NCBI GenBank assembly: GCA_014382605.1
Contig: JACNJM010000253.1
Coordinates: 1,385-49,182 of the forward strand
Length of the DNA: 47,798 nucleotides
Reading direction: 5' to 3'
From: Anaerolineae bacterium
GTDB lineage: Bacteria; Chloroflexota; Anaerolineae; Anaerolineales; UBA11858
This document shows positions 9,386 to 9,821 of this stretch, one piece after another. Under the pieces are notes generated by a model that ran no database searches, was not told the DNA's origin, and saw only the letters and a program-made list of their open reading frames with translations. A program made the translations under genes and the position numbers. Positions within the stretch are counted from its first letter, which is position 1; each line of letters starts with the position of its first letter.

Positions 9386-9628
9386 ATGGACACAAATCAG
9401 CACCAAACCCAAATTCTCATCGAGCGTCTGGCGCGGCTTTCTGCCGATTCGCTGTGGGCGCGGCGCGCCAGCGGGGTGCGCGCCGCGCTGGATAAGGCCC
9501 TCAGCCGCCCAGAGATAAGTGACCCGCAATATCTGGAACGTCTCATCCAGGCTGGTTTTGAACTGCTCGAAAAAGCCGCGTGTGAATTGCCTTACGATAA
9601 CATTGACAAATCCGGCGGCATTGACTAG
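9386..9628 (+). CDS. Small hypothetical helical protein (80 aa)
   Basis: ATG at 9386; amphipathic LIERLARLSADSLWARRASGVR; fills the gap between the repeat and the next promoter. Confidence 0.6.
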   Translation: MDTNQHQTQILIERLARLSADSLWARRASGVRAALDKALSRPEISDPQYLERLIQAGFELLEKAACELPYDNIDKSGGID

Positions 9629-9631
9629 AAT
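9603..9631 (+). promoter_or_regulatory. Sigma70 promoter for the Met leader and cystathionine gamma-synthase
   Basis: TTGACA-17 nt-TAGAAT. Confidence 0.85.
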
Positions 9632-9641
9632 TCGCCCCAAT

Positions 9642-9749
9642 ATGTTTACTACCACCTTGATCTCCCTCGGCATTTTTGCCACAATGATGAGCGTGTTGAT
9701 GCCCCGCTCGCGGGCTTGGGTGGTCGCGTCTCGCAGACGCAGGCATTAG
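9642..9749 (+). CDS. Putative attenuator leader peptide MFTTTLISLGIFATMMSVLMPRSRAWVVASRRRRH (35 aa)
   Basis: Starts 10 nt after the -10 box; Met codons 15, 16 and 20; the coding region contains ttgggtggtc, complementary to the 5' arm of the terminator. Confidence 0.7.
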   Translation: MFTTTLISLGIFATMMSVLMPRSRAWVVASRRRRH

Positions 9750-9773
9750 AACGTACATATCTTTTGCACAATA

Positions 9774-9797
9774 GGCCGCCCAATCGGGCGGCTTTTT
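9774..9797 (+). terminator. Intrinsic terminator (attenuator) upstream of cystathionine gamma-synthase
   Basis: gccgccc-aatc-gggcggc-ttttt, 24 nt before the start codon. Confidence 0.85.
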
Positions 9798-9821
9798 GAT
9801 TCCCACAAGGAGAATGTTTGT

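Follow-up and report, generated by a model that had tools for sequence, protein, structure and literature searches.

A candidate methionine-codon attenuator upstream of a cystathionine gamma-synthase-family gene and of metG in Anaerolineales

The leader and the gene that follows it

The DNA analysed is a 47,798-nucleotide (nt) stretch of contig JACNJM010000253.1 from the assembly GCA_014382605.1 of an Anaerolineae bacterium (phylum Chloroflexota, order Anaerolineales). The whole stretch is referred to here as the window, and the assembly as the source genome. Directly upstream of a gene for a cystathionine gamma-synthase (CGS)-family enzyme, a sequence-only reading had placed a promoter, a short open reading frame (ORF) with clustered Met codons, an antiterminator strand and a terminator, and had proposed that these form a leader-peptide attenuator that senses methionine. 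All of these parts were found in the sequence, on the plus strand. A sigma-70-type promoter at 9603-9631 matches 11 of the 12 consensus positions, with TTGACA at -35 (9603-9608), a 17-nt spacer and TAGAAT at -10 (9626-9631). The leader ORF (9642-9749) consists of 35 codons and a TAG stop. Its ATG follows the -10 hexamer at a distance of 10 nt and is not preceded by a Shine-Dalgarno sequence, so that with the predicted start site of the promoter the ORF would be near-leaderless. Three internal Met codons, the putative regulatory codons, fall within six consecutive codons (codons 15, 16 and 20, 9684-9701; the ATGs start at 9684, 9687 and 9699). Downstream of the ORF is an intrinsic terminator (9773-9797), in which region 3 (9773-9781) and region 4 (9786-9794) form a stem of nine pairs, seven of them G-C, around a 4-nt loop (9782-9785), with a T-run at 9793-9797. 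A Shine-Dalgarno sequence for the regulated gene was read at 9807-9812, 9 nt before the ATG at 9822.

The antiterminator strand (region 2) had been placed at 9716-9725. It pairs with 9774-9783 over 10 bp, including two G-U pairs, and no better ungapped duplex was obtained between leader and terminator 5' arm; when the leader was dinucleotide-shuffled 200 times, this score was never reached (0 of 200). The strand begins 17 nt after the first base of the last Met codon. The minimum free energy (MFE) structure of the full-length leader consisted of a hairpin enclosing the Met codons and of the terminator. In the MFE folds, 9651-9657 (region 1) pairs with 9718-9724 as the 5' strand of a predicted anti-antiterminator helix, and a small hairpin with a 6-bp stem and a 3-nt loop occupies 9726-9740 in the 3' part of the ORF. 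The latter is kept in six orthologous loci (L001-L006).

The regulated gene (9822-11060) encodes a protein of 412 amino acids, which was classified by profile and structure-chain searches. The best NCBIfam model was NF006097, at 370 bits and below its cut-off of 600 bits. The nearest solved structure was the cystathionine gamma-synthase entry 1i41 at 379 bits, the next chain scoring 307. By its sequence, the protein is clearly a pyridoxal phosphate (PLP) enzyme of Cys/Met metabolism at the level of the family, no equivalog cut-off having been passed, and at that level the earlier call of a methionine-biosynthetic gene downstream of the leader holds. We take entry 1i41 to be the plant CGS that uses O-phosphohomoserine; if this is right, the regulated gene would act at the committed step after the pathways to Thr and Met diverge, which is offered as a lead and not as a result. 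MetA, MetX and MetE were not detected in the source genome, which is 93% complete (the best MetX score was 40.9 bits against a cut-off of 500). Because none of these three was found and CGS is the nearest structure, it becomes a question which activated homoserine the enzyme uses. The MetH-like domains of the genome are spread over separate ORFs, and no Met leader was found upstream of these split genes or of a second CGS paralogue.

Taken by itself, the window element is marginal. Its three internal Met among 34 codons (P = 0.034 at the genome Met frequency of 2.1%) make it the weakest leader of its family in Met content; over the matching stretch, most relatives have 5-8. The region contains 4 promoter-like sites against 1.6 ± 1.5 in shuffled sequences, and 3 terminator-like sites against 3.3 ± 1.9; neither count goes beyond chance by itself, and the latter is no enrichment. 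The fold of 9638-9825 gave z = -1.93, with 3 of 200 shuffles as stable. The marginal Met enrichment and the ordinary number of terminator-like sites suit a non-regulatory explanation, in which the ORF would code for nothing or for a small, hydrophobic protein rich in Met, and the hairpin would end an upstream transcription unit. The overlap of the promoter with the end of an 86-codon ORF (9368-9628; no NCBIfam match), which terminates inside it, fits the same explanation. The significance of the element comes instead from its conservation in related genomes.

Orthologous loci, SAM-I riboswitches and the metG leader

The 412-residue protein was searched in 60 related genomes, and the regions upstream of the best 24 loci were compared. 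A second set of 80 named loci was obtained by scanning named genomes with an alignment of 15 proteins. The same layout, namely a promoter, a short ORF with a Met run mid-way and, 14-45 nt upstream of the gene, a terminator, preceded the orthologue in 12 of the best 24 loci (L001-L010, L019 and L023). Two further carriers were present among the 80 named loci, one in a Chloroflexota metagenome-assembled genome (L036) and one in the cultured Bellilinea caldifistulae GOMI-1 (L041), which brings the total to 14 loci, all of the class Anaerolineae. The scan found a terminator in every one of the 14, and in each of them the frame is open and Met-rich. The spacing to the gene departs from the stated range in two cases, L004 (134 nt) and L008, for which the gene start is uncertain. 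When upstream sequences were compared, the -35/-10 arrangement of the window promoter was also present in L002-L006. A -10-like hexamer lies 6-10 nt before the leader ATG in 12 of the 14 CGS-family leaders; this count was obtained partly by construction, as the start ATG was itself picked for its nearness 3' of such a hexamer, which lessens its weight as evidence for a near-leaderless ORF. No leader of this kind was found by the scan in Myxococcota, Methylomirabilota, Planctomycetota or the other loci of the named set.

Forty orthologous loci of the CGS-family gene were scanned with Rfam for riboswitches. At the position of the leader, 23 of them carry a SAM-I riboswitch (RF00162), which is as expected of a gene repressed by methionine or S-adenosylmethionine (SAM) as the end product. 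A Met leader and no Rfam match was found in 13, both elements in none, and neither in four (L018, L031, L044 and L047). In a maximum-likelihood tree of 41 proteins, whose root is not known, ten of the genes with the leader group in a single clade (support 99/99), which is nested among genes that bear the riboswitch, and the remaining four are placed elsewhere on branches that are long or weakly supported. Mapping the label (leader or riboswitch) onto the tree needs two changes, of which the starred branches force only one. The prevalence of SAM-I suggests that the riboswitch is ancestral and was replaced by the leader, this direction being taken from prevalence since the tree is unrooted.

With RNA-level sensing of the product as the norm at this site, the leader region could itself be a metabolite-binding riboswitch of an undescribed kind, recognizing SAM, methionine or a relative and choosing between terminator and antiterminator, with the ORF incidental. 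The window gave no match to any of 4227 Rfam families at the gathering threshold. At E-values up to 10, positions 9500-9900 matched neither SAM-I nor the T-box, and the only matches, all weak, lay on the terminator hairpin. Weak partial matches to the window and metG leaders were dropped as family assignments, as they covered the terminator hairpin only.

The source genome was then scanned for short ORFs in which a stretch of 8 codons holds at least 3 Met and whose end lies no more than 90 nt 5' of any of 1074 terminator-like sites. Four were obtained: the window element, one on contig C278, and two with 3 Met each on C46 and C119. The C278 leader (locus L111:981-1180) has 36 codons, with 6 internal Met and 5 Met in 8 codons, and possesses its own TTGACA/-10 promoter and a strong terminator. 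The gene that it precedes (L111:1312-3090) passes the NCBIfam metG model TIGR00398 with 451 bits against a cut-off of 336. At 24 of 30 metG loci of relatives, a short ORF lies upstream in which a stretch of 8 codons holds at least 4 Met, counting L113, whose run falls just beyond the 420-nt span searched; the other 23 lie within it. The remaining loci comprise three with 3 Met in 8 codons, one with 2, and two that lack upstream sequence. As background, 1408 regions upstream of long ORFs in the source genome were examined for a run of the same density, and four contained one (0.28%), the metG leader itself among them. A terminator was present in 25 of the 26 metG leaders analysed and was not found in L131.

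The phylum was sampled more widely by searching 121 genomes for metG; 71 matched and 20 upstream regions were examined. At least 3 Met in 8 codons together with a terminator were found in 7 of 8 regions from the same order and in 0 of 3 from the same class. Of the nine regions from other classes, L156 is plausible, and L159 has a Met run without a terminator. The metG leader thus looks largely confined to the order, in what is a small sample. A pattern search of 61 genomes for two Met pairs one codon apart returned several hundred matches, mostly intragenic. Among 20 of the matched regions, taken from three genomes, a short ORF and a terminator were seen only in one, before metG of genome G057.

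These results bear directly on the non-regulatory explanation of the window element. Two Met-related genes that do not share their upstream neighbours both have the layout; among metG loci it is found at 24 of 30, compared to 4 of the 1408 regions taken as background; and at the orthologues of the CGS-family gene it alternates with SAM-I. An accidental arrangement is for these reasons considered very improbable, and the diverged sequences described below reduce its appeal further.

Codon reading and alternative RNA structures

For codon and duplex counts, 39 leaders were pooled (14 CGS-family and 25 metG). ATG triplets numbered 233 in the frame of the ORF and 7 and 2 in the other frames, a count that is partly by construction since the leader frame was chosen as the ATG-richest one, and that weighs less on this account. 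Met makes up 18.1% of the leader codons, compared to 2.1% in the long ORFs of the source genome. In frames that are open from a promoter-proximal ATG to a stop before the terminator, such a ratio would be hard to explain except by translation. The leader peptides of distant members could not be aligned beyond the Met run, and still the copy of the terminator arm keeps its distance from that run, which is not what a chance arrangement would be expected to give. The sequence-only reading had also raised the possibility that early Thr and Ile codons add input from the aspartate family. This was not borne out: the early Thr codons coincide with the 5' strand of the predicted helix (region 1), and Thr is not kept as a residue in relatives.

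Beyond the Met run, both leader families share a G+C-rich stretch of 15-17 nt (9702-9715 in the window), which encodes roughly Pro/Arg-Arg...Ala-Trp with almost no synonymous variation. Candidate explanations for the stretch are common descent of both leaders, a small hairpin and a polymerase pause signal. Its presence in both families could also be taken as the mark of a conserved arrest peptide, which like TnaC with tryptophan would sense free methionine or SAM inside the ribosome, so that the Met residues would matter as peptide and not as codons. The scant synonymous variation in the stretch points rather to constraint on the RNA than to selection on the peptide. The stretch is also absent or different in L007, L009, L010, L023, L036 and L041, all of which have the Met run and the terminator. 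An arrest peptide would in addition have the wrong sign, with abundant methionine or SAM freeing the antiterminator and inducing a biosynthetic gene. It is therefore judged highly unlikely.

The conservation of this segment at the nucleotide level, with little synonymous change, is again compatible with the undescribed riboswitch considered above. Distant members of the family nevertheless have almost nothing in common beyond their run of in-frame ATGs, the openness of the frame and, at constant spacing, a copy of the terminator arm, and a ligand pocket would not require the 233:7:2 bias in ATG frame. On the metG alignment, RNAalifold recovered the terminator as the only conserved structure. 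Together with the Rfam searches, these results leave a ligand-binding RNA with very little probability.

In both leader families, a near-copy of the 3' arm of the terminator lies inside the ORF downstream of the Met run. Measured from the first base of the final codon in the Met cluster, the best duplex between leader and terminator 5' arm begins 12-24 nt further on in 27 of the 39 leaders; it was matched by no more than 10 of 200 shuffles in 27 of 39. The antiterminator was then assessed in alignments of 22 metG-family sequences and of 7 sequences made up of the closest relatives of the window leader. In the metG family, 76.8% of the antiterminator cells are paired, compared to 20-43% with the partner slid, and 85.4% are paired in the terminator helix itself. 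The covariation score of the antiterminator was 0.170 against a shuffled mean of 0.108, and none of 500 shuffles was as high. One pair varies among G-C (7 sequences), U-A (5), C-G (3) and U-G (1), with other combinations in 6. As its 3' partner is in the terminator loop, this pair speaks for the antiterminator specifically. In the CGS family, 95.7% of the cells are paired, compared to 32-50% when slid. The outermost pair, which likewise has its 3' partner in the terminator loop, is U-A in four sequences and C-G in three. The fixed distance from the Met run to the antiterminator, in two families with different stems, is the strongest structural argument.

The anti-antiterminator helix was predicted from single sequences for L001-L004, L008, L009, L023, L036, L041 and many of the metG leaders. 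The sequence of region 1 differs among L001, L002, L003, L004 and L008, yet 7-8 pairs are retained; the changes in the helix of L002, L003, L004 and L008 are exchanges of G-C and G-U together with one two-sided change. In the sequence-only reading, a ribosome reading on past the Met codons was to disrupt the antiterminator strand. This part of the proposal needs correction, since the stop codon lies 22 nt beyond the strand, and disruption by the ribosome would not be the main effect of reading on; the alternative predicted here is the helix 9651-9657/9718-9724.

Proposed mechanism and relation to known systems

Sequence comparison shows the component parts and how far they are conserved, a pairing that covaries, and an association with two genes related to methionine. 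As far as sequence can tell, the element is likely to be a classical ribosome-mediated transcription attenuator reading Met (AUG) codons. The antiterminator proposed at 9716-9725 has gained in standing, as the Met run, the frame, the terminator and the position of the strand are kept in 14 otherwise diverged loci. In the proposed mechanism, the transcript would begin a few bases 5' of the leader ATG (9642). As long as no ribosome is stalled, a composite hairpin with the outer helix 9651-9657/9718-9724 would enclose the Met codons. Once it has formed, the terminator (9773-9794) and its T-run would form too, and transcription would end 28 nt short of the CGS-family gene. A scarcity of Met-tRNA(Met) would make a ribosome stall at 9684-9701. 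By its expected geometry, the footprint would open the composite hairpin and end just short of 9716. If folding follows this order, the freed strand 9716-9725 would capture the 5' arm of the terminator (9774-9783) as the arm emerges, and the terminator would be excluded. RNA polymerase would then enter the gene, which is supplied with its own Shine-Dalgarno sequence, and expression would go up with a shortage of charged Met-tRNA.

The sister element would raise methionyl-tRNA synthetase from metG when charging falls. SAM would be sensed separately. The only SAM-I riboswitch of the source genome (contig C15:5420-5600, locus L142; 80.8 bits) lies before metK (TIGR01034, 592 bits). Charging of Met-tRNA would thus be read at the synthesis gene and at metG, and SAM at metK. 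The broader proposal, which is likely and is put forward with somewhat less assurance than the attenuator itself, is a ribosome-read Met regulon across the order Anaerolineales, in which leaders with AUG runs would attenuate the CGS-family gene, taken as encoding the entry enzyme of methionine synthesis, and metG, and would have replaced an ancestral SAM-I at the former.

Several observations count against these proposals. The duplex was unconvincing against shuffles in 12 of the 39 leaders, for example in L007 (96 of 200), L019 (161 of 200), L130 (103 of 200) and L139 (185 of 200), and also in L010; L019 has no recognisable antiterminator. The anti-antiterminator helix is an energy prediction from single sequences, and RNAalifold kept the terminator only when applied to the metG alignment. 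L005 and L006 fold differently from the other CGS-family leaders. For L001-L003, a transcript in which region 4 has yet to be made has the antiterminator as its MFE structure even with no ribosome present, so that the model has to assume that the first hairpin is trapped kinetically. A ribosome stalled on the Met codons would not sit over region 1, which is 5' of them, and with the stop codon 22 nt past the 3' end of 9716-9725, a terminating ribosome would not cover region 2. Because neither region is covered, the effect of stalling on the balance of structures is something we infer. Starvation for methionine also depletes the initiator tRNA and could block translation of the leader itself. 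Finally, two genomes of the Bellilinea group have no metG leader, and Bellilinea does have the CGS-family leader, which makes for a patchy regulon.

Classical leader-peptide attenuators are known for trp, his, phe, thr, leu and ilv in Proteobacteria and for trp and ilv/leu in Actinobacteria. For methionine genes, the known controls are SAM riboswitches, T-boxes and protein regulators, and to our knowledge, methionine is not on the accepted list of amino acids sensed by leader-peptide attenuation. The present element resembles the classical attenuators in its promoter-proximal ORF with clustered cognate codons, in the intrinsic terminator before the structural gene, in a mutually exclusive antiterminator that is a near-copy of the 3' arm of the terminator, and in the gene of the cognate pathway downstream; a sequestering helix upstream is predicted by single-sequence folds. 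It differs in having AUG, the codon that also starts translation, as its regulatory codon; in that the leader apparently lies near the 5' end of the transcript with no Shine-Dalgarno sequence; in that region 1 is upstream of the regulatory codons and the stop well past region 2; and in its host, which belongs to the Anaerolineae (Chloroflexota). The general scheme of leader-peptide attenuation followed here is that given in the available parts of 10.1101/834739 and PMC8079986.

Leaders of synthetase genes that combine cognate codons with a terminator provide feedback from tRNA charging, and the metG leaders have this form; a search of full-text literature found no metG case of such attenuation. 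The single precedent found in the literature is an annotation in Streptomyces lividans TK24, where a leaderless ORF upstream of metNIQ was named 'metL' and read by its authors as a Met-dependent leader (PMC8079986, in the text available). Like it, the window leader is a short ORF, predicted to be near-leaderless, before a Met-related gene. According to the same portion of PMC8079986, metL has two internal Met interleaved with Cys and no Rho-independent terminator ('termination is unclear'), and it is an annotation without comparative or experimental test; it has no sequence relationship to the window element. Among systems studied by experiment, the nearest in concept are the polycysteine short ORFs of mycobacteria, leaderless sensory ORFs with a run of sulfur-amino-acid codons, which occur at several loci as a ribosome-read regulon with experimental support for stalling-dependent control (10.1101/834739, available parts). 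These differ from the present leaders in sensing Cys, and the tested locus, as described there, acts on translation initiation through a sequestered Shine-Dalgarno sequence and has no intrinsic terminator. Cys leaders are also treated in PMC1262725.

The SAM-I riboswitch (S-box) occupies the same place before orthologues and likewise ends in a terminator. It differs in having a conserved aptamer that senses SAM directly, of which none was matched in the window. Met-specific T-box leaders of Firmicutes bind tRNA directly without translation and act by antitermination. They share with the present leader the reading of the charging state of tRNA(Met), and not of a metabolite, as well as the antitermination; the differences are that they rely on tRNA-RNA binding in place of translation, and that no T-box was matched in the window. 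The accessible part of PMC2965389 mentions a methionine transporter preceded by a T-box.

No described leader-peptide attenuator that senses methionine was found in the full-text literature search, apart from the metL annotation in the available text of PMC8079986; supplements and a 2010 survey of attenuators across phyla were outside its scope. The accessible portion of an Actinobacteria survey states that no conserved RNA structures were present upstream of methionine operons (PMC1262725), and that of a genome-wide attenuator survey (PMC2965389) mentions no Met leader-peptide attenuator. What appears to be new, judged from sequence, is the Met specificity of a classical attenuator, the order-wide pair of elements and the alternation with SAM-I.

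Other leaders were observed in the source genome. Downstream of the CGS-family gene, the window has a leader before ilvD (11354-13021) and an acetolactate-synthase-like gene (13113-14795). It comprises a promoter (11096-11124; 11 of 12 consensus positions), a 37-codon ORF (11168-11281) rich in Leu, Ile, Val and Phe, and a terminator (11313-11334, T-run 11335-11339) of which a 7-nt copy of the 3' arm lies in the ORF at 11252-11258. This terminator is absent from the list produced by the scan for terminator-like sites. The element looks like a branched-chain amino-acid leader peptide. On the minus strand of contig C6 (11388-11471), six consecutive His codons and a terminator lie 72 nt before a HisG-like ORF and look like a classical His attenuator. 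An Ala-rich short ORF with a terminator-like site is present on the minus strand of contig C333 (2381-2500), 89 nt before an AlaS-like ORF of 931 residues; an alaS leader of comparable kind is annotated in S. lividans in the available text of PMC8079986. With such His, Ala and branched-chain-like leaders in one genome, leader-peptide attenuation appears to be common in the organism, which speaks in favour of the reading proposed for the Met leaders. Elsewhere in the window, upstream of the 86-codon ORF, are a gene for a putative bacillithiol disulfide reductase of the YpdA family (8195-9262) and, on the minus strand (6431-8107), a 558-residue protein that was judged from its translation to have two ABC ATPase-like halves.

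A Met-codon attenuator would fill a gap in the textbook list of amino acids, and as a practical matter, dozens of short ORFs in Anaerolineae could be annotated as leader peptides. The alternation of leader and riboswitch would provide a clean example of a gene whose sensor was exchanged for another in the course of evolution. The leader would also constitute a natural test, as it would report a shortage of elongator Met-tRNA and yet need initiator Met-tRNA for its own translation; the cultured Bellilinea caldifistulae carries one such leader and could be used experimentally. If the proposal is true, attenuation would be workable even for the amino acid that also starts translation of the leader.

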